Source of the DNA: Pseudomonadota bacterium
GTDB taxonomy: Bacteria; Pseudomonadota; Gammaproteobacteria; Steroidobacterales; Steroidobacteraceae
Reading direction: 5' to 3'
Length of the DNA stretch: 64,000 nt
NCBI GenBank assembly: GCA_021843755.1
Contig: JAKBWB010000065.1
Span: forward strand, 3,357 to 67,356
Shown here: one piece after another, positions 2,960 to 17,518 of the stretch
How the letters are laid out: each line of letters begins with the position of its first letter
Numbering within the stretch: position 1 is the stretch's first letter
The notes under the pieces: generated by a model
What the model was told of the DNA's origin: nothing
The model's input: the letters and a program-made list of their open reading frames with translations, nothing else
The model's database searches: none
Position numbers and translations under genes: made by a program

Positions 2960-3119
2960 CGCTGCGCGACAGTTCGTACCAAAATCCGCAGTCGTGAGGG
3001 GGGCCTGCCGTGTTGCGCGGACGGTCTACCGCTCACCTGACGGTGGGGTAGGCATCATCAGCCCTGTGGCAGTTCGGGGAGGAATGCCATCTCCGTGCGG
3101 CAAATCGTACACTGCTGCC

Positions 3120-6527: not shown

Positions 6528-6806
6528 CGGCGCGCTTGCAGTGTGCGCCGCTACGCAGGGGTCATCAGCTCACGGGAGCGGTTGCAGGGAACCCCATCCC
6601 CGGAAGAAACACGCAACCAAGGTAGTCCAGGCGAATCCGCCGGTCAATTCCCCCCCCTCTGTCCGCCCATGCGTAGAGCCCCGATTGACGCCCTCGGGGC
6701 TCCTCATTACGATGATCGCAAGCCTATCGGGGATGGAGTCCCCCGCGAACGGTCTGCATACCTGATGACTCCTGCCACGTCGCGTTAGCGTACGGGGAGG
6801 AGTTTC

Positions 6807-8606
6807 GTGATGAGCAGTCCGAGCGTGCTGAATCCGGCACAAATTGAAAGTACTCCCGAGCCTCGGGTGGAGCTCGCGCAGTGCCTGAACGACGCGACGG
6901 GTCTCCAGGGAATCGATTCCGCGACCTGCGGATGGCTGCGGGAAAAGCTCTCGGAAGAGTTCTTCAACCTGGTCGCCGTGGGCCAATTCAAGCGCGGCAA
7001 GAGCACGATCATCAACGCGCTGCTCGGCGAGGCACTCCTGCCCGTTGGGGTCGTACCCCTGACATCTGTCGTCACCGTCATCCGCTCCGGGCCCCGGACC
7101 TCGGCGCGCGTAACGCTGCGTGACGGGCGGACACTCCCCATTGAGATCGACGCGCTGGCCGAATACGTCACCGAGCGCGGCAACCCCGGGAATGCCAAGT
7201 CGGTCGAACGCGTTGACATCGAGCATCCCTCCTCTTGGCTTGCCAACGGAGTGAGGCTGGTCGATACGCCCGGCATCGCCTCCATCTATGAACACAACAC
7301 GGACGAAACCCACAGGTTTCTCCCGCAAGCGGATGCCGTCCTGCTCATCGCTTCCGTCGACCAGCCCGTCAGCCGTGCGGAGCTCGACTTTCTGAGTGAT
7401 CTGCGCCGCTATGCCGGCAAGACTATCTGTCTGCTCAACAAGACGGACCACCTGCTTCCCGAGGAATTGCACGAGACCATGGCGTTCGCCGTCGGCGCCA
7501 TCCGCGACGCGCTGGGGCCGGATATTCCGGTATTTGCGGTCTCGGGGAAGCTGGCGCTGGAGGGCAGGCTCCGCGGCGAGGCGGAACTTCTCGAGCGCAG
7601 CGGATTCCCGGAGTTCGAGGGGATGCTGCGCCGCTTCATGGCGCGGGAAAAGACCGCCGCCTGGCTGCGGTCGATCGCCCGCAGCCTCGCGCGGCTGCTC
7701 GCCGAAAGACGCTTTGCGCTCGACCTCGAGTCGAAGGTGCTGGTCGAGCCGCTCGAGCGCATCGAGGCCAATCTTGCCCTGTTCCGCGAGGAGAAGGAAA
7801 AAGCCGAGCGGGCACGCCAGGACTACCGCGTATTGCTCGAAGCCGACGCCCGGGCGCTGCTCAAGGAGCACATCGAGCCCGGCCTCGAGGACTTCAAGCG
7901 GAGCGAACAAACCCGGATCTGCGCCGCTATCACCCGCTGGACGGTGGAGCTGCGGCAACTTCCCCCGCACAAGCTCCAGGCGGCGATCGAGGCGCGGATG
8001 ATCACCGCGATTCGAACCGCATACGAGGACTGGCTGGCGCAGCAGGACGTGGAACTGTCACGCGCCTTCCAGCGGCTGTGCGCCCGTTTCTGGGCGAGTC
8101 TGCAGCAGAGCGTCGATGAACTCTTGCGCCGATCGAGCGAGCTGTTCGCCCTGACTTTCGAGCGCACCGACACCGAGCCGCACTGGTCCACTGAGTCCGG
8201 GTTCTACTACAAATTCTGGTACGAACCGACGAGCCTGAGGATCCTCTCGACCTCCGTGGTGCTGATGCTGCCCCGTGTCCTTGCCGCGCCCCTCATCGCA
8301 GGCCGAGCCAAGACCGCTGCCGTGGAACGCGTTGAAGTACAGGCCGGCCGCATCCGCCACGACCTCGAAGAGCGGCTGAAAAAGAGCATCCGGGACGCTC
8401 AAAACCGGATGCTCGAACAGATCGCAGCCACGGTCGCCGGCATCGAAGCGGCGATCGAGAACGGCATCTCGATGCGTAGACTCAGCTCCGCGGAGGTGAG
8501 TGCGCGTAGCGGCGAAATCGAGGACACGCTGCAGAGGATCGCCGAGCTCTCCGGGTGCCTGACCCGAATCCTGTCTAATCTCTGGCCAGATGACGGGTCT
8601 CGTTGA
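6807..8606 (+). CDS. bacterial dynamin-like GTPase (BDLP/LeoA-type), copy 2
   Basis: 599-aa ORF. G1 is VGQFKRGKSTIINALLG. The G2 region is VVPLTSVVTVI. G3 is LVDTPGIASIYE. G4 is LLNKTDHL. The helical stalk contains one hydrophobic segment (LRILSTSVVLMLPRVLAAPLIAG) that could be a membrane paddle. GGAGGAG lies just upstream of the GTG-ATG at 6807/6810. Confidence 0.85.
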   Translation: MMSSPSVLNPAQIESTPEPRVELAQCLNDATGLQGIDSATCGWLREKLSEEFFNLVAVGQFKRGKSTIINALLGEALLPVGVVPLTSVVTVIRSGPRTSARVTLRDGRTLPIEIDALAEYVTERGNPGNAKSVERVDIEHPSSWLANGVRLVDTPGIASIYEHNTDETHRFLPQADAVLLIASVDQPVSRAELDFLSDLRRYAGKTICLLNKTDHLLPEELHETMAFAVGAIRDALGPDIPVFAVSGKLALEGRLRGEAELLERSGFPEFEGMLRRFMAREKTAAWLRSIARSLARLLAERRFALDLESKVLVEPLERIEANLALFREEKEKAERARQDYRVLLEADARALLKEHIEPGLEDFKRSEQTRICAAITRWTVELRQLPPHKLQAAIEARMITAIRTAYEDWLAQQDVELSRAFQRLCARFWASLQQSVDELLRRSSELFALTFERTDTEPHWSTESGFYYKFWYEPTSLRILSTSVVLMLPRVLAAPLIAGRAKTAAVERVEVQAGRIRHDLEERLKKSIRDAQNRMLEQIAATVAGIEAAIENGISMRRLSSAEVSARSGEIEDTLQRIAELSGCLTRILSNLWPDDGSR

Positions 8607-9189
8607 TACCAATGACCCTGGCGTCATGCCCATGCACCCGCGCCTCGTTGATGGCACACGGCTCTTGCGAAAGCCGCCAGTAGGCGGATATCGGCTGGTC
8701 GAGCAACTGCAGCAGTATCGCCCGCATACCGCTATCGTGTCCCACGATCACGATGGTGTCCGCGGGATGGCGCTCGACGACCATCCGCACGACATCGGCG
8801 GTGCGCGCGATGAGATCCTGCAGCGCCTCCCCTTCGGGAAACCGCACCAGGTGCGGCGCTCTCAACCACCGCTCGAAGAGCTCCGGCCACTCGGTACGGA
8901 TCTCGCTGTGCAGACGCCACGTCCAGGTGCCGTAATCGAAATCGTTGAGCTCCTCGGATACGGCCGTCTCGATCCCGCAAGCCCTGGCGATCTCCCTCGC
9001 GGTCTGAACACAGCGCTTAAGCGGACTCGTGTAGAGGATCGCCGGGCGCCAGCGCGAAGCGATGCACCGCGCCGTCGCCTCCGCCTGACGGCGTCCCTCA
9101 TCGGTCAAAGGCACATCCCTTCTGCCCCGGAAGCGCTCCGGTTGAATTCCCTCGACATGGCCGTGACGCACGAGGACCAGGTGACTCAT
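8575..9189 (-). CDS. histidine phosphatase family protein (phosphoglycerate mutase-like)
   Basis: MSHLVLVRHGHVEG...RFRGRRDVPLTDEGRRQAEA carries the RHG catalytic motif, and VIVGHDSG carries the second His motif. ATG at 9189 is preceded by GGAGAA. The track ORF extends to 9240. Confidence 0.8.
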   Translation of the reverse strand: MSHLVLVRHGHVEGIQPERFRGRRDVPLTDEGRRQAEATARCIASRWRPAILYTSPLKRCVQTAREIARACGIETAVSEELNDFDYGTWTWRLHSEIRTEWPELFERWLRAPHLVRFPEGEALQDLIARTADVVRMVVERHPADTIVIVGHDSGMRAILLQLLDQPISAYWRLSQEPCAINEARVHGHDARVIGINETRHLARD

Positions 9190-9790
9190 CGCGATTCTCC
9201 AGGTTGCGGGCAAGGTACGGAGGGCGGCGGCCGCCGTCAATTACCCGAGCCGGCTATCGCAGAGGACAGACGCCCATGATGCGCGAGATTTCCGCCCAAC
9301 TGCGCCAGTATGAGCAAGACAAGTTCGAGCTGGCCGAGATCCTGCGCGCCATCCTGGTCGCGGTCTTACATGCAGCGATACGCGCTGAAGCGCGATGGAA
9401 TACGACGCGCCCTCGTGACCGACGAGGAAGCGCGCGCGGCGCAGCGCGCGCTCGCGCTCCTTGCTGGGATGCCGAATGTCCCGTGCCACAACTGAGATGG
9501 AATGCCAAAAGTTACCATATCCACGCTGCGGCGCGATCGCATCCGCCAATCTTGCCCCCGCGCGGACCATTTGCTAGGATCCCGCGCCGGGAGATGGCAT
9601 CCTCCCCGAACCGCCGCAAGGCTGATGACGCCTACCGCACTCGTCGGATGGAGACGGGTGGGGCGGGTGACACAGCACACCACGCCATCCTCTACCCGCA
9701 ACGACGGCCGACGAGCTGCACCCTCTTCTGATCCGGAGGTGGCGGTGATGTCAACAGGATTCCCCCGCGTCCTCGCATCCCCTGGCTGAA

Positions 9791-10750
9791 GTGTCGGCCA
9801 TGCTGCTTCGCATCCTGGCCAATGCGTTGCAGGTGCTGGTGGTGCTGCTGCTCTCACCGCTCGTGGCGGGGGTGCTGGACCGCCTGAAGGAAATCATCCA
9901 GTCGAAACGCGGCCCCAGCGTCTTGCAGCCATATCGCGACTTGTGGAAGCTGTTCCACAAGGATGAGGTCCTTTCCGATCGCAGCTCCTGGCTGTTCCGA
10001 GCCACACCCTACGTCGTGTTCGTCACGCCGATCTTCGTGACGCTGCTCATTCCCGTACTGACCAACTATCCGCTGTTCCTGGCCTTCATGGCGGACATGG
10101 TTGGCGTGGGATTCGTGCTGGCGCTCGGCGGGTTCTTCGCCACCCTGGGCGCGGTCGACACGGGCAACCCCTACGGCCCGATGGGCGCCAGCCGCACGCG
10201 AATGGTGGCGTTCCTCGCCGAGCCGGTGTTCGTCATCGTCTTTTTCACCGTCTCGTTCGTAGCCGGCTCCACCATTCCCTATATCGTGCAGGCCCACTGG
10301 GCGCTCTCTGCGGCAATCTTCCTGTCGCCGACGCACGTGCTGCTGATGGCGGCGTTCTTCCTGCTCATCCTGGCCGAGGGCGGACGGATCCCGGTCGACA
10401 GCCCCACGGGCCATGTCGAGCTGGCGATGATCGATGAGTCGAAGAGCCTCGAGTACTCCGGCACCGGTGCGGCGCTCATGAAATGGGGCGGGTACATGAA
10501 GTTGCTCGTGCTCATGTGCGTGTTCCTGAACGTGCTGGTCACACCCTGGGGCCTGGCGAGCGGCCAGACACTGTCCGCGGTGGCGCTGGCCATTCCCTTC
10601 GTGGCGCTGAAGGTGCTGATACTCATTCTCGCTCTCGTGGTGGTGGAGTCCTCGCTGGCAAAGCTGCGACTGTTCCGCATCAGCGAGTTCCTGGGAGCCG
10701 CCTTCGTCACCTGCGTGGCGGCGATGATCACGCAGCTGTTCAAGGTGTAA
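9791..10750 (+). CDS. HyfC/HycD-like (NuoH-family) membrane subunit of a group-4-hydrogenase-related complex
   Basis: 319-aa polytopic protein. The N-terminus LLLSPLVAGVLDRLKEIIQSKRGPSVLQPYRDLWKLFHKDEV is typical of formate hydrogenlyase subunit 4 / NuoH-like proteins. First gene of a tightly packed operon. Confidence 0.8.
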   Translation: MSAMLLRILANALQVLVVLLLSPLVAGVLDRLKEIIQSKRGPSVLQPYRDLWKLFHKDEVLSDRSSWLFRATPYVVFVTPIFVTLLIPVLTNYPLFLAFMADMVGVGFVLALGGFFATLGAVDTGNPYGPMGASRTRMVAFLAEPVFVIVFFTVSFVAGSTIPYIVQAHWALSAAIFLSPTHVLLMAAFFLLILAEGGRIPVDSPTGHVELAMIDESKSLEYSGTGAALMKWGGYMKLLVLMCVFLNVLVTPWGLASGQTLSAVALAIPFVALKVLILILALVVVESSLAKLRLFRISEFLGAAFVTCVAAMITQLFKV

Positions 10751-10762
10751 GGATCAATCACG

Positions 10763-11515
10763 ATGAGCGCCACCACCGTGACGAGCACCCTCGCCTCCCT
10801 GAACTCGCTGGTAGGAGGACTGTTCCTGCTCACGGCGTTCGCGATGGTCGCAACCCGGCAGACCCGTGGCTGCCTCCAACTGTTCATCGCGCAATCGCTC
10901 TTGCTCGCCGCCTCGGCCTTCCTCCTTGGTGCCGAGTACCACACCCCGCACCTCTACGGCGTCGGAATCGTCGATCTGATCAGCAAGCCCATCCTCGTCC
11001 CCTGGATTCTGAACCGCACGCTGACGAGGGAGGTTTACGCCAAGCGGGAAATCGACCAGGTATTGAACATCCCGACGTCCCTGCTGATCGCGTTGGCGTT
11101 CGCGGTGTTCGCCTACTTCCTGACGCGGCCGCTCCTCGATGCGGTGGCGCCGCAATTTCGCGGCGCCAATGTGCCGATAGGGTTCGCCGCTTTACTGCTC
11201 GGCGCCTACACTCTTGCGGTGCGCCGTGAAGCCGTGCCGATGTTGCTCGGGATCCTGGCCATGGAGAATGGCGCATTCTTCGTCGGCATCCTGCTCGCGC
11301 GCGACCTGCCGTTCATTATCGAGCTCGCCGTCGCCTCTGACGGACTCATCATGGTGTTCGTCGTCGGCATACTGGTACGGAAGATCCAGCACCGACTCGG
11401 CTCGACGCGGATCGGTGAGCTTGCGACGCTGAGAGAAGGTTCCGCCTCGCCCCCCTCGCCGCTTCCTCACGACGGCTCGATTGCGCCGGAGCGGCAAAAC
11501 CCGAAGGCCGTATGA
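10763..11515 (+). CDS. HyfE-like small membrane subunit (NuoK-related)
   Basis: 250-aa hydrophobic protein in the HyfE position between the HyfC-like and HyfF-like genes. Its stop overlaps the next start (ATGA at 11512-11515). Confidence 0.65.
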   Translation: MSATTVTSTLASLNSLVGGLFLLTAFAMVATRQTRGCLQLFIAQSLLLAASAFLLGAEYHTPHLYGVGIVDLISKPILVPWILNRTLTREVYAKREIDQVLNIPTSLLIALAFAVFAYFLTRPLLDAVAPQFRGANVPIGFAALLLGAYTLAVRREAVPMLLGILAMENGAFFVGILLARDLPFIIELAVASDGLIMVFVVGILVRKIQHRLGSTRIGELATLREGSASPPSPLPHDGSIAPERQNPKAV

Positions 11516-13017
11516 CGCTGCTCCTCATCCCGGGCCTGCCCCTGCTTGCGGCTCTTCTGTCCGGCGCCGCAATGTTGAGACCAAAGCGGCCCCGCGCACG
11601 CGCGAGCGAGCGGGTCCTCGCCGGGATGACCATCGTCAGCTCGGTGCTCGTACTGCTGCTCGCCTCCAAGATGGCCTGGCGAGTCGCCGCCGGCGCGACA
11701 TTCACCGCGCTTTCCGGATGGGTGTCGGTGGATGCGCTCGGCGCCCTGATCATCCTGCTGATCGCCCTCGTGGGCACCACTTCGGCCATCTATTCGTGGG
11801 GATACATGGCGCGCTCCTACACCGAGCCGGGGAGGCTGCGGCTCTACTACGCGAACTACAATCTGTTCATCTTCTCGATGCTGGCGATTCCGATGGTGAA
11901 TGAGCCGACGCTGGTATGGATCTTCGTCGAGCTGACCACGGTGTCGTCCGCGTTGCTGGTGAGCTTCGAGAACACCGAGGCGGCGCTCGAGGCGGCTTGG
12001 AAGTACGTCGCATTATCGCTCATGGGCGCGGGGATCGCGCTCCTCGGATTTCTGCTGCTGTTCTCCACGCTGCAGGCGGCCGGCGGCGAGAGTTATACGT
12101 GGCAAGGATTGCAGCACGTGGCGGCCCGGATGCCGCCCGCACTTCTCACCACGTCGTTCGTGTTGATTCTGGTCGGACTCGGAACCAAGGTGGGGTTCGT
12201 ACCGCTGCACACCTGGCTGCCGGACGCTCACAGCCAGGCGCCCTCGCCGGTGTGCGCACTGCTCTCGGGAATCGAGACCACGAGCGTGCTGTACGTGATC
12301 CTGCGGCTGCTGCCGATCGTGGATTCCGCCTCCACCCCGGGGATGCGGCGGTGGGTGATCGGATTCGGTCTGCTCTCGGCCGGTACGGCCGCGTTCCTGC
12401 TGCTGCAGGTCCGCGATTACAAGCGCCTCTTTGCTTTCTCGACAGTCGAGCACATGGGCATCATCCTCGTGGCCGCGGGGCTCGCCGGCGAGGCGGCTCA
12501 TTTTGCCGCGGTCTATCAGATCCTTGCCCACACGGTCACCAAGTCCTTCTGTTTCTTCGCCGCCGGCGCAGCGCTCCTCACGGTGAAGACCCGGGACATT
12601 TCTTCGGTCCGCGGACTGATTGGCGCCTCCCCAATCGCAGCCATCGCGCTGCTTCTCGGCGCTCTGGCCATCGCCGGGGCACCACCTCTGCCGCTGTTCA
12701 TGAGCGAGTTCGCCATTCTGCGCGCCGGTCTTGCCTCGGGCCGTTATCTCACCGTGGCGCTTCTGGCGCTGTTTATCGTGATTGCCTTCTTCGGGATTCT
12801 GCTGCACGTGAACCGCATGGTATTCGGCAGCCCGAAACCCGGGAATCACGAGCCCGCCACGCAGCCGGCGACCGCTCCTGCGGCCATCATGCCGCTACCC
12901 CACACCTGCATCGCCGTATTGATCGCCGGCGGTGCATTGATGATCGCGCTGGGCTTGGTTCTACCTTCACCACTGCGTGAGCTGTTGCGCCTCGCAGCAG
13001 CGGGCCTGCGGCGGTAG
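11512..13017 (+). CDS. HyfF-like antiporter-type subunit (NuoM/NuoN family)
   Basis: 501-aa polytopic protein with proton-pumping-subunit signatures: FVPLHTWLPDAHSQAPSPVCALLSG and FSTVEHMGIILVA. Confidence 0.8.
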   Translation: MTLLLIPGLPLLAALLSGAAMLRPKRPRARASERVLAGMTIVSSVLVLLLASKMAWRVAAGATFTALSGWVSVDALGALIILLIALVGTTSAIYSWGYMARSYTEPGRLRLYYANYNLFIFSMLAIPMVNEPTLVWIFVELTTVSSALLVSFENTEAALEAAWKYVALSLMGAGIALLGFLLLFSTLQAAGGESYTWQGLQHVAARMPPALLTTSFVLILVGLGTKVGFVPLHTWLPDAHSQAPSPVCALLSGIETTSVLYVILRLLPIVDSASTPGMRRWVIGFGLLSAGTAAFLLLQVRDYKRLFAFSTVEHMGIILVAAGLAGEAAHFAAVYQILAHTVTKSFCFFAAGAALLTVKTRDISSVRGLIGASPIAAIALLLGALAIAGAPPLPLFMSEFAILRAGLASGRYLTVALLALFIVIAFFGILLHVNRMVFGSPKPGNHEPATQPATAPAAIMPLPHTCIAVLIAGGALMIALGLVLPSPLRELLRLAAAGLRR

Positions 13018-13023
13018 ACCATC

Positions 13024-14646
13024 ATGGAAATCCCGGTGCAACGACACGCGCAGTGCAGTCGGCGGAGCCTGCACTTCGAGATCGACTGTCAGCCGCAGCG
13101 CCTGGTACAAGTGTGTAGTGCACTCTCCCGCGCGGGGTTTGGTTTCGCCGGCCTCATCGTCGAGGAGTGGCAGCGCCAATGGTGGCTGAGATACGCATTC
13201 CATTCCCTGAGCGGCAGCGGCGGGAAGATCCTGCGGCGCACCCTCGCAGAGCCGCCGGAACCAGCAGACTTCGCCCCGCTGTGCTCTTCCGCCGACTGGA
13301 TCGACGTGCTCATCCGACAGCCTCTGACGCGCACGAGCTATCCGAGTATCAGCAGCGAGGTGCTCGCCGCGGACTGGCACGAGCGCGAAGCGGAGGACCT
13401 CTTCGAGCTCACCTTCGAGGGCCATCCACGCCTCGGGGACTTCGTGCTGCATGATGTCGCCTGGCAGGAGGGGCTTGCGCCGATGCGCAAGGATTTCAAT
13501 GCGCACACCCCTCCGTCCGAGCGTCGGCCGAATCCGGCGTGGCGTCCGCAGCGCATCGTTCACGAACCAGGCTCTTTCCTGATGCCCATTGGACCGATCT
13601 ATGGCGGCGTCTCGGAGTCAGTGCACTTCACGCTGGAGACGGTGGGCGAAGACGTCATCCGGGCGCTGCCGCGTCTGTTCTACAAATACCGGGCGGTGGA
13701 GAAAATCGCCGAGGGTCGCGCTGCGCCAGACCTACTGTTGCTGGCGGAGCGTTTCAATGGCATCGCGGCCTTCGCCCACGGCCTGGCCTGCGCACAGGCC
13801 ATCGAAACCGTTGCCGGAGTCGAACCACCCGCCCGAGCGCTGACGCTGCGCGTCATGCTCGCGGAACTGGAGCGGCTCAGGCATCACACCGGAACGATCC
13901 ACGACATCTGCGAATCCACCGCACTCACCGTCGCGGCGAGCCAGGCGGCGATTCTTGAGGAGGAGCTGCTGCGGCTTTCGGGCTCGCTCACGGGGCACCG
14001 TTACCTCTTCGGCCTGCTCATGCCCGGTGGACTGAGCCGGGACTTCGAGCAGCACTCGTTGGCGGACGCGGTGCGAGCGGTCCAGGACATCGCGCGCCGG
14101 TTGACCCAACTGGAGCGGCACTTGGTCACGACCAGCAGCTTCCTCGACCGACTGGAAGAAGTCGGCATCGTGACGCCTGCCCTGGCGCGGACCTACGGAC
14201 TCGTGGGTCCCGTAGCACGTGCTTCCGGTCTTGCCTGCGATTTACGCCGTGCGCAACCTTACGCAGCGTACGACGCCTACACATTCGATATTCCGCAGGA
14301 ACAGGACGGCGACGGCTACGCGCGGCTGCGCGTGCTATTTGCCGAAGCCCGCCAGGCGAGCCGCATTCTCGGCCAGGCCGTCAATATGCTGCCGGACGGA
14401 CCCGTGTGCGTCGCCTGCCCCGACATTCCGCCGGGGGCCGCGCTCGGCTGGAGCGAGGCGCCCGTCGGCGCGACCTTTCACTGGATCCACGCGGATGAGC
14501 AAGGACGCGTGAGCCGCTACCACATCATGTCCCCCTCCTTCGCCAACTGGCACGGCTTTCACCTTGCGGCCGAGAAGTTCGCCTTCCAGGACTTTCCCAT
14601 CATCCTGGCAACCTTCGGACTGTCGGCGGCGGAGACAGATCGATGA
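13024..14646 (+). CDS. NuoC-NuoD / HycE-HyfG-like fused large subunit lacking all four [NiFe] cysteine ligands
   Basis: 540 aa. The N-terminal part is NuoC-like (AADWHEREAEDLFELTFEGHPRLGDF). The C-terminal part is large-subunit-like (GPIYGGVSESVHFTLETVGEDVIRALPRLFYKYRAVEKIAEG). Where RxCGxCxxxH is expected the DNA at 13747-13776 encodes ERFNGIAAFAH. Where DPCxxCxDR is expected the protein ends FGLSAAETDR. Confidence 0.85.
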   Translation: MEIPVQRHAQCSRRSLHFEIDCQPQRLVQVCSALSRAGFGFAGLIVEEWQRQWWLRYAFHSLSGSGGKILRRTLAEPPEPADFAPLCSSADWIDVLIRQPLTRTSYPSISSEVLAADWHEREAEDLFELTFEGHPRLGDFVLHDVAWQEGLAPMRKDFNAHTPPSERRPNPAWRPQRIVHEPGSFLMPIGPIYGGVSESVHFTLETVGEDVIRALPRLFYKYRAVEKIAEGRAAPDLLLLAERFNGIAAFAHGLACAQAIETVAGVEPPARALTLRVMLAELERLRHHTGTIHDICESTALTVAASQAAILEEELLRLSGSLTGHRYLFGLLMPGGLSRDFEQHSLADAVRAVQDIARRLTQLERHLVTTSSFLDRLEEVGIVTPALARTYGLVGPVARASGLACDLRRAQPYAAYDAYTFDIPQEQDGDGYARLRVLFAEARQASRILGQAVNMLPDGPVCVACPDIPPGAALGWSEAPVGATFHWIHADEQGRVSRYHIMSPSFANWHGFHLAAEKFAFQDFPIILATFGLSAAETDR

Positions 14647-15383
14647 CCCAATGGGTACTCGAGGGCCTGCGCGCCGGTATTCGCACGACACGCTACCCCT
14701 TTGCCCCCGAGACAGCTGCGGGTGTCAGCCCGGGTCTTCCCGCCGCCGGAGAGCTCGCCCGGCCCGACCTGGAACGGCTCATCGCGCGCTGCCCGACGGC
14801 CGCGCTTGCGAGCGCCGATGGACGGCTCGTAGTCGATGCGCGCCGCTGCGTGCATTGTTTCCGCTGCGTGCGGGGATCTGACACCCCGGCACCCTGGCAA
14901 GGCGGCTATGAGTGGGCAACCGGCGAGGGAACCTTGGGCAAGACGTTCACACGCTCGCTGCACATCAGGGTGGTCGATGCCGGAGATTGCGGGGCCTGCC
15001 TGCATGAGGTCAAGCAGCTCGCCGGTCCCTATTACAGTCTCCACCGCCTCGGCTTTTTCATCTCTCCCACTCCGCGTCAGGCGGATGTGCTGCTCGTCGT
15101 AGGCCCCGGCACCGACCAGATGCGCGAGGCGCTTACCAAGGCGTACAAGGCCATGCCGACTCCTCGCACCGTGATTGCGGTCGGCACCTGCGCGCTCTCG
15201 GGCGGCGTGTTCGGGTCCAACTTCGCGTGCGGCGGCGGCATTTCCTCGATCTTGCCCGTGGATGTGGAAGTGCCGGGTAATCCACCGCCTCCACTTGCCA
15301 TTCTGCACGCCCTGCTGCTCGCCACCGGCCGCGCCGCCCCAGCTGCGAAGGAGCGGCAGACTGCAGGAGAGCGAATGCCATGA
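14643..15383 (+). CDS. NuoB/HycG/HyfI-like small subunit with an N-terminal single-cluster ferredoxin remnant
   Basis: 246 aa. The NuoB core is VVDAGDCGACLHEV...ADVLLVVGPGT...VIAVGTCALSGG...LPVDVEVPGNPPPP. The fourth cluster cysteine (PGCPP) is Asn, encoded by aat at about 15279-15281. The N-terminus carries CPTAA...(17 aa)...CVHCFRC. ATGA overlaps occur at both ends. Confidence 0.8.
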   Translation: MTQWVLEGLRAGIRTTRYPFAPETAAGVSPGLPAAGELARPDLERLIARCPTAALASADGRLVVDARRCVHCFRCVRGSDTPAPWQGGYEWATGEGTLGKTFTRSLHIRVVDAGDCGACLHEVKQLAGPYYSLHRLGFFISPTPRQADVLLVVGPGTDQMREALTKAYKAMPTPRTVIAVGTCALSGGVFGSNFACGGGISSILPVDVEVPGNPPPPLAILHALLLATGRAAPAAKERQTAGERMP

Positions 15384-17518
15384 TCGCAATGGCCTGGACC
15401 GGCGCATTCTTTGCGCTCTGCGCGCTGGGCATGCTCCTCGCACCGTTCGTCCCGCAACGACGCAACCCCCTCCTGGTTGCCATCGCGGGCGCCCTGGCCT
15501 CAGCGTGCCTTTGTGTAGCGGGTGCGTATGCCCTGCTGTCCGGCCGCACTGTCGACACGACCCTCGGCCTCTCGCCCCTGGGCAGCACGATACGCTTCAG
15601 CCTCGATCCCCTGTCAGGGGTGTTCGTGCTCATCACGGGGATCGTGTTTCTCGCCACTTCGGTGTTCTCAGCAGGCTACCTGCAACGCTACCTGGACCAC
15701 TACAGTCTGAAGGTGTTCACCGTTCTGTATTTCGGGCTGCTGGCCGCCATCGCGGCGGTGCTTCTGGCAAGCGACGTCCTCTCATTCCTCGTCGCCTGGG
15801 AGCTGATGTCGATCGGCTGCTACCTGCTCGTCAATTTCGAGCATCGGCGCGACGAGAACATCCGCGCCGGCTACCTCATGCTCGCCATGGGCGAGGCGGG
15901 AACCCTGGCCGCGGCGGTGGCGTTGCTCCTCCTGGCCAACGCGGCCGGCTCGCTCGGGTTCGAGGCGATCCGCATGAACGGCACCCGGCTCGCCGACGGC
16001 CTGCGCTGGACGGTGTTCGTGCTGTCGGTGGCGGGCTTCGGGGTGAAAGCCGGTCTGGTGCCAGTCAACTCCTGGCTCCCTCGCGCCCACCCGGCCGCAC
16101 CGGCCAATGTCTCCGCGCTCCTCTCCGGAGTGATCCTCAACCTCGGTATTTACGGCATTGTGCGCGTCAACCTCGACCTCGTGCCGCCTCGCCTGGCCGG
16201 ACCCGGCATCGTCCTGCTGCTGGTAGGAGCCATCTCGGCGTTCCTCGGCATTCTCTACGCCGTCACCGCCAACGATATGAAAACTCTGCTCGCGCACAGC
16301 TCCATCGAAAACATGGGCATCGCGACGACGGCTCTCGGGGCGGGCGTGGTCTTTGCGACCACCGGTCATCAAGCACTCGCCGCCATCGCCCTCGTCGCAG
16401 CGTTCTACCAGCTTGCCAATCATTCGGTCTACAAGGCGCTTCTCTTCTTCGGCGCCGGGACGGTGGACGCCTACGCCGGCACGCGGGACCTCGATCACCT
16501 GGGAGGTCTCATCCACCGAATGCCGTGGACAGCCCTGTTCTTCCTCATCGGTTCGCTCTCGATCGCTGCCATCTACCCTTTCAGCGGCTTCAGCAGCGAG
16601 TGGCTGACGCTGCAGGCGCTGCTGCGCAGCGCCGAGCTCTCATCGAACCTCGTCAAGACCGCCTTCGCCTTTGCCGGCGTAGCGCTGGCGCTCACCGCGG
16701 CACTGGCCGTCACCTGTTTCGTCAAGGCATTCGCAATGGGGTTCCTCGGCATGCCCCGCTCCCCGGCGGCAGAGGAAGCGCGCGAGGCGCCTCGCTCGAT
16801 GCTCGCACCGATGGGCGCGCTGGCCGCGCTGTGCGTTCTGCTCGGCATTCTGCCGACATTCGTGATTCCCGCCCTCGGCGGGGCGCTCAAATCCGTAGGG
16901 GGCGCGAGCGCCGCGCACACCCTGGTTCCGCCTTTCTTCAGCCACGGCCGGCCATCGGCCTTACCTGCGAAGTTCATCGCCGATTTCCACGATCTCGGCG
17001 CACAAGTGGGTCAGGATATCGTCCCCGGGCGCGGCCTGGTGGTGCTGCATCGCGGCGGTGCGGACAATCCCGTCGTCTTTGCCATGGCGACTTCCTATGG
17101 CTTCGTCGTCCTGATATTGCTCCTGGGGGGTACGGCCTTCGTCGTCAGGCGACTGACCGCAGCTCGTCGCGTCATGCGTGAGGAGCAGTGGGACGGCGGG
17201 GTGCACCAACTCTTACCCGAGATGACCTACACGGCGACTGGATTCTCGAACCCGGTGCGCGTGATCTTCGACGCGATCCTGCGGCCCCGCACCGTCGAGG
17301 ACACGCAGGAAACCGTGGCACAGCATTTCCGCGTGGCCATCGTCCGCACGCGCGAGCACCCGCACCTGGTCGATCGGCTCGTGCTCGATGTGCTCACGGC
17401 CTGGATGGCGGGCGCCGCCGGTCTCCTGGCACGCATGCACCACGGCAAGCTCAACGCCTATGTGGCCTACGTGCTCGGCACGTTGGTGCTCTTCCTGGGG
17501 ATTGCCGCGCTGAGATGA
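15380..17518 (+). CDS. HyfB-like antiporter-type subunit (NuoL family)
   Basis: 712-aa polytopic protein. Signatures are VPVNSWLPRAHPAAPANVSALLSGVILNLGIYG and LAHSSIENMGI. Last gene of the operon. Confidence 0.8.
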   Translation: MIAMAWTGAFFALCALGMLLAPFVPQRRNPLLVAIAGALASACLCVAGAYALLSGRTVDTTLGLSPLGSTIRFSLDPLSGVFVLITGIVFLATSVFSAGYLQRYLDHYSLKVFTVLYFGLLAAIAAVLLASDVLSFLVAWELMSIGCYLLVNFEHRRDENIRAGYLMLAMGEAGTLAAAVALLLLANAAGSLGFEAIRMNGTRLADGLRWTVFVLSVAGFGVKAGLVPVNSWLPRAHPAAPANVSALLSGVILNLGIYGIVRVNLDLVPPRLAGPGIVLLLVGAISAFLGILYAVTANDMKTLLAHSSIENMGIATTALGAGVVFATTGHQALAAIALVAAFYQLANHSVYKALLFFGAGTVDAYAGTRDLDHLGGLIHRMPWTALFFLIGSLSIAAIYPFSGFSSEWLTLQALLRSAELSSNLVKTAFAFAGVALALTAALAVTCFVKAFAMGFLGMPRSPAAEEAREAPRSMLAPMGALAALCVLLGILPTFVIPALGGALKSVGGASAAHTLVPPFFSHGRPSALPAKFIADFHDLGAQVGQDIVPGRGLVVLHRGGADNPVVFAMATSYGFVVLILLLGGTAFVVRRLTAARRVMREEQWDGGVHQLLPEMTYTATGFSNPVRVIFDAILRPRTVEDTQETVAQHFRVAIVRTREHPHLVDRLVLDVLTAWMAGAAGLLARMHHGKLNAYVAYVLGTLVLFLGIAALR

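Follow-up and report, generated by a model that had tools for sequence, protein, structure and literature searches.

A fluoride riboswitch heads a hydrogenase-like operon

The stretch of DNA analysed here (the window) comprises 64,000 nucleotides of contig JAKBWB010000065.1 (assembly GCA_021843755.1, positions 3,357 to 67,356 of the forward strand) from a Pseudomonadota bacterium of the Steroidobacteraceae, and carries on its plus strand a six-gene operon, hyfC-hyfE-hyfF-large-small-hyfB, whose fourth gene (13024-14646) encodes a homologue of the large subunit of group 4 [NiFe] hydrogenases. The operon is headed by a fluoride riboswitch aptamer (crcB motif, RF01734) at 9581-9641 (+), which lies 150 nt before the GTG start (9791) of the first gene and which was detected with 52.1 bits (E 1.5e-11) by Rfam cmscan, relative to a gathering score of 34 and over the full model (1-64), and with 65 bits by a purpose-built covariance model, R1. 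This riboswitch is the decisive context for the operon, and it is absent from the first-pass annotation, a model's reading of the letters and their open reading frames (ORFs) that dealt with the large subunit.

The large-subunit ORF is unbroken from its ATG start to its TGA stop and encodes a protein of 540 aa (P0001) with Complex1_30kDa (NuoC-like, residues 93-161), NiFeSe_Hases (223-288) and Complex1_49kDa (313-464) Pfam domains, and hence a fusion of the NuoC-NuoD/HycE type. Its stop codon overlaps the next start (ATGA, 14643-14646) and the upstream gene ends 6 nt before its ATG, so that these genes are tightly coupled.

All four Ni-Fe ligands are replaced in the large subunit

The top sequence match of P0001 in the PDB is Escherichia coli HycE (7z0s_E; HMMER, E 5.5e-62), to which it is closer than to NuoD (E 1.9e-41 or weaker). 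HMMER aligns 'laerfNgiAafah' of P0001 with 'lsdrvCgiCgfah' of HycE, and both this alignment and one made using MAFFT with HycE, HyfG and NuoCD of E. coli MG1655 match N245 and A248 to the two cysteines of the L1 motif (RxCGxCxxxH), and S534 and E537 to the two of the L2 motif (DPCxxCxxH/R), which in the MAFFT alignment are those of DPCYSCTDR. At L1, the DNA (13747-13779; gag cgt ttc aat ggc atc gcg gcc ttc gcc cac) encodes E242-R-F-N245-G-I-A248-A-F-A-H252, with neither cysteine present but H252 kept. The 3' end of the gene (ttc gga ctg tcg gcg gcg gag aca gat cga tga) encodes F-G-L-S534-A-A-E537-T-D-R-stop, which likewise has no cysteine at L2 and retains the terminal D539-R540. Also kept are R243 and a Glu/His pair of the hydrogenase type in the beta1-beta2 loop (E198, H201).

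HycI-type proteases remove a C-terminal peptide from HycE and HyfG, a peptide that is not found in all group 4 enzymes. HycE and HyfG run ~32 residues beyond DR in the MAFFT alignment, whereas P0001 ends at R540, like NuoCD. On these points our re-reading bore out the first-pass annotation, which had described an intact ORF in a coupled operon, collinearity with HycE/HyfG around both metal motifs, Cys-to-Asn and Cys-to-Ala changes at L1 with the His retained (the DNA that it quoted is exact), Cys-to-Ser and Cys-to-Glu changes at L2 with DR retained, and a missing C-terminal extension.

An AlphaFold2 model of P0001 (mean predicted local distance difference test score, pLDDT, of 75.6) has a confident helical core, and its best fold match is again HycE (7z0s_E, template modelling score 0.75), followed by NuoCD (0.70-0.73). 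By sequence and by fold, P0001 is thus a group 4 homologue, and the complex is descended from group 4 [NiFe] hydrogenases. The residues of Nqo4 that serve in quinone binding have no counterparts: the equivalent of His38, a residue of the beta1-beta2 loop, is S197 in P0001 and mostly Thr or Ala in the family, and that of Tyr87 is G246 in P0001 and Ala or Gly in the family. The check for the NuoD His/Tyr pair that the first-pass annotation had proposed therefore gave a negative answer.

Ligand loss is conserved across phyla

A search of 5.8 billion proteins gave, as the best 120 matches to P0001, sequences of 57-72% identity that without exception terminate in LS[VA..][AS..]E[NTS..]DR and, where their L1 region was matched, have a motif of the ER[FIL][NSA]G..A[FL][AS]H type. 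From species-representative genomes 80 loci were recovered, which span Gamma- and Betaproteobacteria, Verrucomicrobiota, Planctomycetota, Acidobacteriota, Nitrospirota, Actinomycetes, Gemmatimonadales, metagenome-assembled genomes (MAGs) of the Desulfobacterota type and others. The closest loci are in MAGs labelled Gammaproteobacteria, and most carriers belong to aerobic lineages of soil and peat. Among the 79 orthologues extracted from these loci, the first Cys position is occupied by Ala (60), Ser (9), Asn (7) or Cys (3) and the second by Thr (68), Ser (9) or Ala (2), while the third is Ser and the fourth Glu in all 79; E198, R243, H252, C296, D539 and R540 are invariant. Judging from these counts, the L1 replacements drift among small residues and the Ser/Glu pair of L2 is fixed, and presumably functional. 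All 79 lack a C-terminal extension, as P0001 does, and 76 of them have no CxxC anywhere, so that there is no alternative metal motif elsewhere in the protein, in agreement with the first-pass annotation, which had seen no fitting CxxC pair in P0001. With the Ni-Fe site absent in all members, the complex cannot make or split H2.

Neofunctionalisation rather than decay, as in NuoD, had been the first-pass explanation. Its first part is upheld by the clade-wide loss of Cys, by more than 100 invariant columns in an alignment of 60 homologues (59-73% identity) and by synteny, since the gene order hyfC-hyfE-hyfF-large-small-hyfB was found in every locus of the 80 that spans the operon (tblastn with the six window proteins). 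The analogy with NuoD holds only in part.

The riboswitch and crcB accompany the operon in related loci

A search by regular expression missed about half of the riboswitches at the related loci, and R1, built from 27 riboswitch copies and run on all 80 loci, was used instead together with Rfam. In 70 of the 80 loci the hyfC start and DNA upstream of it are present, making these loci assessable. R1 gave a same-strand match in 65 of the 70, usually 100-400 nt before hyfC; seven of its weak matches score above the gathering score in Rfam, and all five R1-negative loci have a same-strand riboswitch upstream by Rfam, which brings the total to 70/70. In three loci (L059, L060 and L067) the riboswitch lies 1.6-2.0 kb upstream, and co-transcription is less sure.

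Longer gaps between riboswitch and hyfC are filled by crcB (the Fluc fluoride channel), DUF190 or, once, a HIT-family gene. Overall, crcB and/or DUF190 occur in 36 of the 80 loci; in ~25 they are on the same strand and directly before hyfC or directly after hyfB, and in several crcB stands between the riboswitch and hyfC. The HIT-family hydrolase gene is found between crcB and hyfC in a betaproteobacterial MAG (L030:5921-6301), and an enolase fragment directly follows hyfB in an Actinomycetes MAG (L060:14501-15154). The sole CrcB-family match of the source genome is at C27:12162-12497.

Partner subunits keep pumping residues and most Fe-S ligands

The first gene of the operon (9791-10750, +) encodes a HyfC/NuoH-like membrane subunit of 319 aa (Pfam NADHdh, E 4e-31), the best conserved of the six with 73-84% identity across loci, and the second (10763-11515, +) a HyfE-like, NuoK/J-like membrane subunit of 250 aa (NCBIfam 'hydrogenase 4 membrane subunit', E 1.3e-23; Pfam Oxidored_q2, weak). 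Two antiporter-like subunits are present, one HyfF-like (11512-13017, +; 501 aa; Pfam Proton_antipo_M, E 4.5e-47) and one HyfB-like (15380-17518, +; 712 aa; NCBIfam 'hydrogenase 4 subunit B', E 6e-166). Both have the Glu of transmembrane helix (TM) 5, the Lys of TM7 and the Glu of TM12 that align to E144, K234 and E407 of E. coli NuoM, three charged positions that occur alike in E. coli NuoL/M/N. In the HyfF-like subunit these are E140, K226 and E399, with the Lys and the TM12 Glu kept in 30/30 orthologues and the TM5 Glu in 29/30; in the HyfB-like subunit they are E141, K223 and E407, invariant in 30/30. Some 16 related loci, among them L011, L012, L013, L028, L029, L033, L048, L070, L077 and L079, have a further antiporter-like gene (~715-740 aa, PF00361) inserted after the small-subunit gene and before hyfB, giving three antiporter-like subunits rather than two.

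The small subunit (14643-15383, +; 246 aa; Pfam Oxidored_q6, E 4e-23) is NuoB/HycG-like with an N-terminal half-ferredoxin fusion. Its 55-residue N-terminal insert contains C50-P and C69xxC72xxC75, the ligand set of one of the two ferredoxin clusters of a paralogue on contig C39 (described below), and in 78 sequences C50(P), C69, C72 and C75 are kept in 78, 78, 73 and 78, respectively. Of the ligands to the proximal cluster, C116 and C119 are each found in 78/78 and C183 in 77/78, and the fourth, the Cys of PGCPP, is N213 here and Asn (48), Gln (10), His (9) or Cys (5) in the family. Of the 48 sequences with N213, 44 also have C196, all 5 with C213 have S/T196, and HycG also carries a Cys at column 196; this covariation may mean that the fourth cluster ligand has been relocated, which we take as a lead only. 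Family profile searches found no formate dehydrogenase, molybdopterin enzyme, separate ferredoxin, HycB, HycF, HycH or HycI among the six operon genes.

Paralogues delimit the fluoride link

The source genome (3.3 Mb in 72 contigs) contains 7-9 fluoride riboswitches and three HycE-like paralogues besides NuoD. The genuine nuo NuoD is on contig C35, and the partners in the window operon are Hyf-like, not those of a nuo operon with NuoA, E, F, G, I and J. HypD is encoded on contig C46, far from the operon, and the test for Hyp proteins is non-discriminating.

The paralogue on contig C39 (P0124) is 36% identical to P0001 and has Ser, Gly, Thr and Gly at the four Cys positions. Its operon (L084:7429-15103, minus strand) stands behind a riboswitch (C39:32032-32102), and the small subunit encoded there combines a complete 2x[4Fe-4S] ferredoxin domain with the whole set of four NuoB-type cysteines. 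Among 80 metagenome loci of the C39-type clade, 53 have enough upstream DNA, and 52 of these 53 have a same-strand riboswitch ~3.1-3.3 kb before the large subunit. HyfE and HyfF are apparently fused (673 aa) in the C39 operon. An enolase gene (L084:5342-6613), itself preceded by a riboswitch-like match of 25 bits, below the Rfam cut-off, adjoins that operon, and a third riboswitch match on C39 points towards an AAA-ATPase-like ORF; it scores 34.8 bits with R1 and 27.8 bits with Rfam, the latter again below the cut-off.

The paralogue on contig C46 (P0121) is 31% identical and also Cys-less ('LAARVSGDS...NLAYSGVDL'), in an operon (L085:2093-9503) of the order hyfB-C-?-F-large-small, and large subunits of its type occur in 57 of 301 genomes of the phylum. 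No fluoride riboswitch was found on C46 in the source genome, nor in 20 extended C46-type loci (Rfam, 0/13; R1, no significant match in 20). A preprint (bioRxiv 10.1101/2025.08.29.672306) quotes the 'AARVS' motif as characteristic of 'group 4f hydrogenases' in Methylocystis, whose induction at pH 5 goes with no detectable H2, and these may also be Cys-less non-hydrogenases.

A quick FastTree phylogeny, for which 1.84 billion cluster representatives had been searched, unites the window clade ('..SE') with the C39-type clade in one Cys-less superclade; beside it stands a four-Cys clade (ER.CG.C..SH / FELCY.C.DR), and the C46-type clade is a separate Cys-less lineage. By this topology, Cys was lost at least twice. 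The fluoride link is therefore a property of one lineage and not of Ehr, the class of Cys-less complexes compared below, as a whole.

The riboswitch leader and its neighbourhood

RNAfold (minimum free energy and centroid structures of 9581-9810) places a long GC-rich hairpin followed by a C/U-rich tract at 9638-9716 (+), which we infer could be the expression platform of the riboswitch; the leader fold is not significant (z-score -1.0). The region 9735-9791 contains a 13-codon upstream ORF (MSTGFPRVLASPG, 9748-9789, +, read from the sequence) with a strong Shine-Dalgarno sequence (GGAGGTGG) 5 nt upstream. Its stop is 1 nt before the hyfC-like GTG start, and it may encode a leader peptide or be a device for translational coupling after the riboswitch.

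With the aptamer at 9581-9641, four fluoride riboswitches in the window score above the Rfam gathering score, the others being at 3042-3103 (-), 6549-6610 (-) and 6720-6781 (+). This clustering makes the hyf-like operon the downstream end of a fluoride-response island. Two more fluoride riboswitches lie just upstream of the window (C18:1689-1912), and the other riboswitches in or near it head MutS-like and dynamin-like GTPase genes. A histidine-phosphatase ORF (phosphoglycerate-mutase-like, 'LVRHGH'; 8575-9240, -) separates the dynamin-like gene from the operon's riboswitch. The plus-strand ORFs at 8590-9279 and 9502-9789, for which no family match was found, overlap this phosphatase-like ORF and the riboswitch leader and are probably not real genes.

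Proposed function and alternatives

We propose, with a probability of roughly 0.6, that the window operon encodes a fluoride-induced ion-translocating complex of the Ehr type that does not make hydrogen. What is directly supported is that the ligands are lost, that this loss is conserved in the family, that a fluoride riboswitch controls the operon, that crcB is often linked to it, and that the pumping residues and Fe-S ligands persist. Ion pumping, along with the direction of the pump, the identity of the ion and a redox drive, is what we infer. In this model, the riboswitch in the leader would switch on the six-gene operon under fluoride. Hydrogen fluoride (HF) leaking into the cell would dissociate and acidify the cytoplasm, and export of F- by Fluc (CrcB) or CLC-F exporters would consume membrane potential; the inducible complex would then move protons or Na+/H+ across the membrane and so restore cytoplasmic pH and the proton-motive force. 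Electrons would pass from a ferredoxin-like donor to the half-ferredoxin cluster, on to the proximal cluster and finally to an acceptor at the remodelled pocket, and the retained Fe-S ligands suggest that a drive by electron transfer is still present. Support of pH and proton-motive force agrees with the published logic of the fluoride regulon (PMC11139923).

Several observations weigh against this proposal. The AlphaFold2 model is poor precisely at the former active site (pLDDT below 50 at residues 177-220 and 534-540, and weak from 137). Neither a canonical intrinsic terminator, by a simple scan, nor a clear sequestering helix was found in the leader. The operon contains no electron-donor module and no recognisable acceptor site, which makes the energy source a guess, and the variation of the fourth proximal-cluster ligand (N/Q/H/C) would argue that redox chemistry is dispensable. 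Finally, the crcB gene of the source genome is on contig C27 and not beside the operon, and no fluoride riboswitch was detected on that contig.

The complex could instead be a NuoD-like quinone reductase, that is, a small ferredoxin:quinone oxidoreductase acting as a complex I-like proton pump under fluoride stress, with quinone bound non-canonically in the remodelled pocket. That P0001 ends at DR with a Glu at the fourth Cys position, as do NuoD of Aquifex and E. coli, is in its favour, as are the retained Fe-S chain, the high conservation of the NuoH-like subunit (73-84%), which in complex I forms much of the quinone tunnel, and the fold match to NuoCD, nearly equal to that to HycE. However, the equivalents of Nqo4 His38 and Tyr87 are absent (S197 and G246 in P0001; T/A and A/G in the family), the sequence is nearest to HycE and not to NuoD, and contig C35 of the same genome holds a true nuo NuoD; we consider this alternative unlikely.

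A more radical possibility is a machine dedicated to fluoride. Fluoride or Mg/metal-fluoride would be bound either in the rebuilt pocket with its invariant Ser534 and Glu537, both hard oxygen ligands, or at a site-differentiated proximal cluster that has three Cys and a fourth ligand either relocated or other than Cys. With this binding coupled to the antiporter-like subunits, the complex would export, sense or otherwise handle fluoride or HF. If true, it would amount to primary-active extrusion of fluoride/HF or to ion pumping gated by fluoride, a chemistry new to the complex I superfamily. The near-absolute riboswitch association in two deep clades and its absence from another Cys-less clade would fit, as would the invariance of S534 and E537 while the L1 replacements drift, the variable fourth cluster ligand and the frequent crcB linkage. 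Yet ordinary exporters are present in the carriers as well (crcB shares the operon at many loci and is on C27 here), so that a supporting role fits better than a redundant exporter, and the covariation of N213 with C196 suggests that the fourth Cys may simply have moved; we regard such a machine as distinctly improbable.

Much further down in likelihood, and to our mind very improbable, is a genuine formate hydrogenlyase (FHL) or hydrogenase induced in a fluoride-driven shift to fermentative metabolism. Homologues are named 'formate hydrogenlyase subunit 5' by JGI, a 2024 review (PMC11139923) takes the riboswitch-linked genes as FHL, the nearest solved structure is HycE of E. coli FHL, and the genome carries HypD. 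Against this, the Ni-Fe ligands are lost in every member by the counts in 79 orthologues, there is no C-terminal maturation peptide, the operon is without formate dehydrogenase, HycB/HycF, HycH and HycI, and the carriers belong largely to aerobic soil and peat lineages. As for a decaying pseudogene or non-functional remnant, the loss of catalytic ligands would be in line with one, but it is hardly conceivable, being already contradicted by the conservation data (more than 100 invariant columns in 60 homologues and synteny across many phyla) and by the intact, translationally coupled ORF.

Comparison with known systems

The window complex shares with Mrp-type Na+/H+ antiporters and the Na+/H+ antiporters of the fluoride regulon homologous antiporter-like subunits with the conserved Glu and Lys residues and, under the proposed function, a regulatory logic that leads from fluoride to pH and ion homeostasis (PMC11139923). 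According to that review, exporters come first in the fluoride regulon and Na+/H+ antiporters are next commonest, and pH homeostasis is central to fluoride tolerance. Mrp, however, has no NuoH/B/C/D-like module or Fe-S subunit.

NuoD/Nqo4 is a precedent for loss of the Ni-Fe site with the scaffold kept, and resembles P0001 in ending at DR and in having an acidic residue where the fourth Cys would be, but P0001 lacks equivalents of the quinone-binding His38 and Tyr87, and its operon has no NuoEFG input module. HycE/HyfG is the best match in sequence and fold, with the same NuoC-NuoD fusion, Hyf-like partners, and E198, H201, R243, H252 and the terminal DR in common. The differences are an identity of 27-29%, the four replaced cysteines, the missing 32-residue C-terminal peptide, and the absence of equivalents of HyfA, HyfH and HyfJ, a half-ferredoxin in the small subunit replacing the separate HycF/HyfH.

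'Formate hydrogen lyase' genes downstream of crcB-motif RNAs were noted in 2010 (Weinberg 2010, PMC2864571) and are a class in the fluoride regulon (Baker 2012, as cited in PMC11139923 and PMC8752731). Papers of 2022 and 2024 repeat the link and treat the riboswitch-linked genes as a real FHL, with formate oxidation and a shift to fermentation. The window locus, with its FHL/hydrogenase-4 annotation directly downstream of RF01734, is an instance of this class, but the window version is without Ni-Fe ligands, formate dehydrogenase and HycB/F/H/I.

Descriptions of Ehr complexes are due to Coppi 2004 and Marreiros 2013 and are summarised in PMC6349859, PMC7894505 and PMC10284858. In these three papers, the Cys-less state is given as the defining trait, the function is stated to be unknown, the complexes are placed near group 4f, and the class is reported in Nitrospira. 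A Nitrospira japonica MAG is among our related loci (L042). The window operon resembles Ehr in its antiporter-like, NuoH-like and HyfE-like subunits, which accompany the large and NuoB-like small subunits, and in a large subunit without CxxC Ni-Fe motifs; on this gene set and the loss of Cys we assign the complex to the Ehr type, whose founding members include the Geobacter genes GSU0739-45. Ehr is, however, an informal class and not one clade in the tree, where at least two independent Cys-less lineages appear, and only the lineage of the window gene is tied to fluoride (70/70 and 52/53 loci vs 0/20).

Within the literature searched, fluoride is absent from the Ehr papers, nothing relevant joins fluoride riboswitches with hydrogenase, Mrp or complex I, and no paper was found that equates the fluoride-switched 'FHL' with a Cys-less Ehr lineage, although such papers may exist beyond that literature. 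Hydrogenase research treats Ehr complexes as Cys-less group 4 relatives of unassigned function, and riboswitch and fluoride research counts 'formate hydrogen lyase' among the most frequent fluoride-switched genes and takes it for a metabolic shift; no paper found joins the two. From the window locus and ~200 relatives, the fluoride-switched 'FHL' is one specific Ehr lineage that is unable to be a hydrogenase, which corrects a misleading FHL annotation used in reviews and in metagenome-based claims on H2 metabolism. For an orphan branch of the complex I superfamily, this supplies a defined inducer and a phenotype that can be tested, fluoride tolerance at low pH. Its carriers are frequent in acidic soils and peat, the settings of greatest HF toxicity. 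Altogether, both Ehr complexes and the fluoride-regulon 'FHL' were already known as classes, and what is new here is that they are joined.

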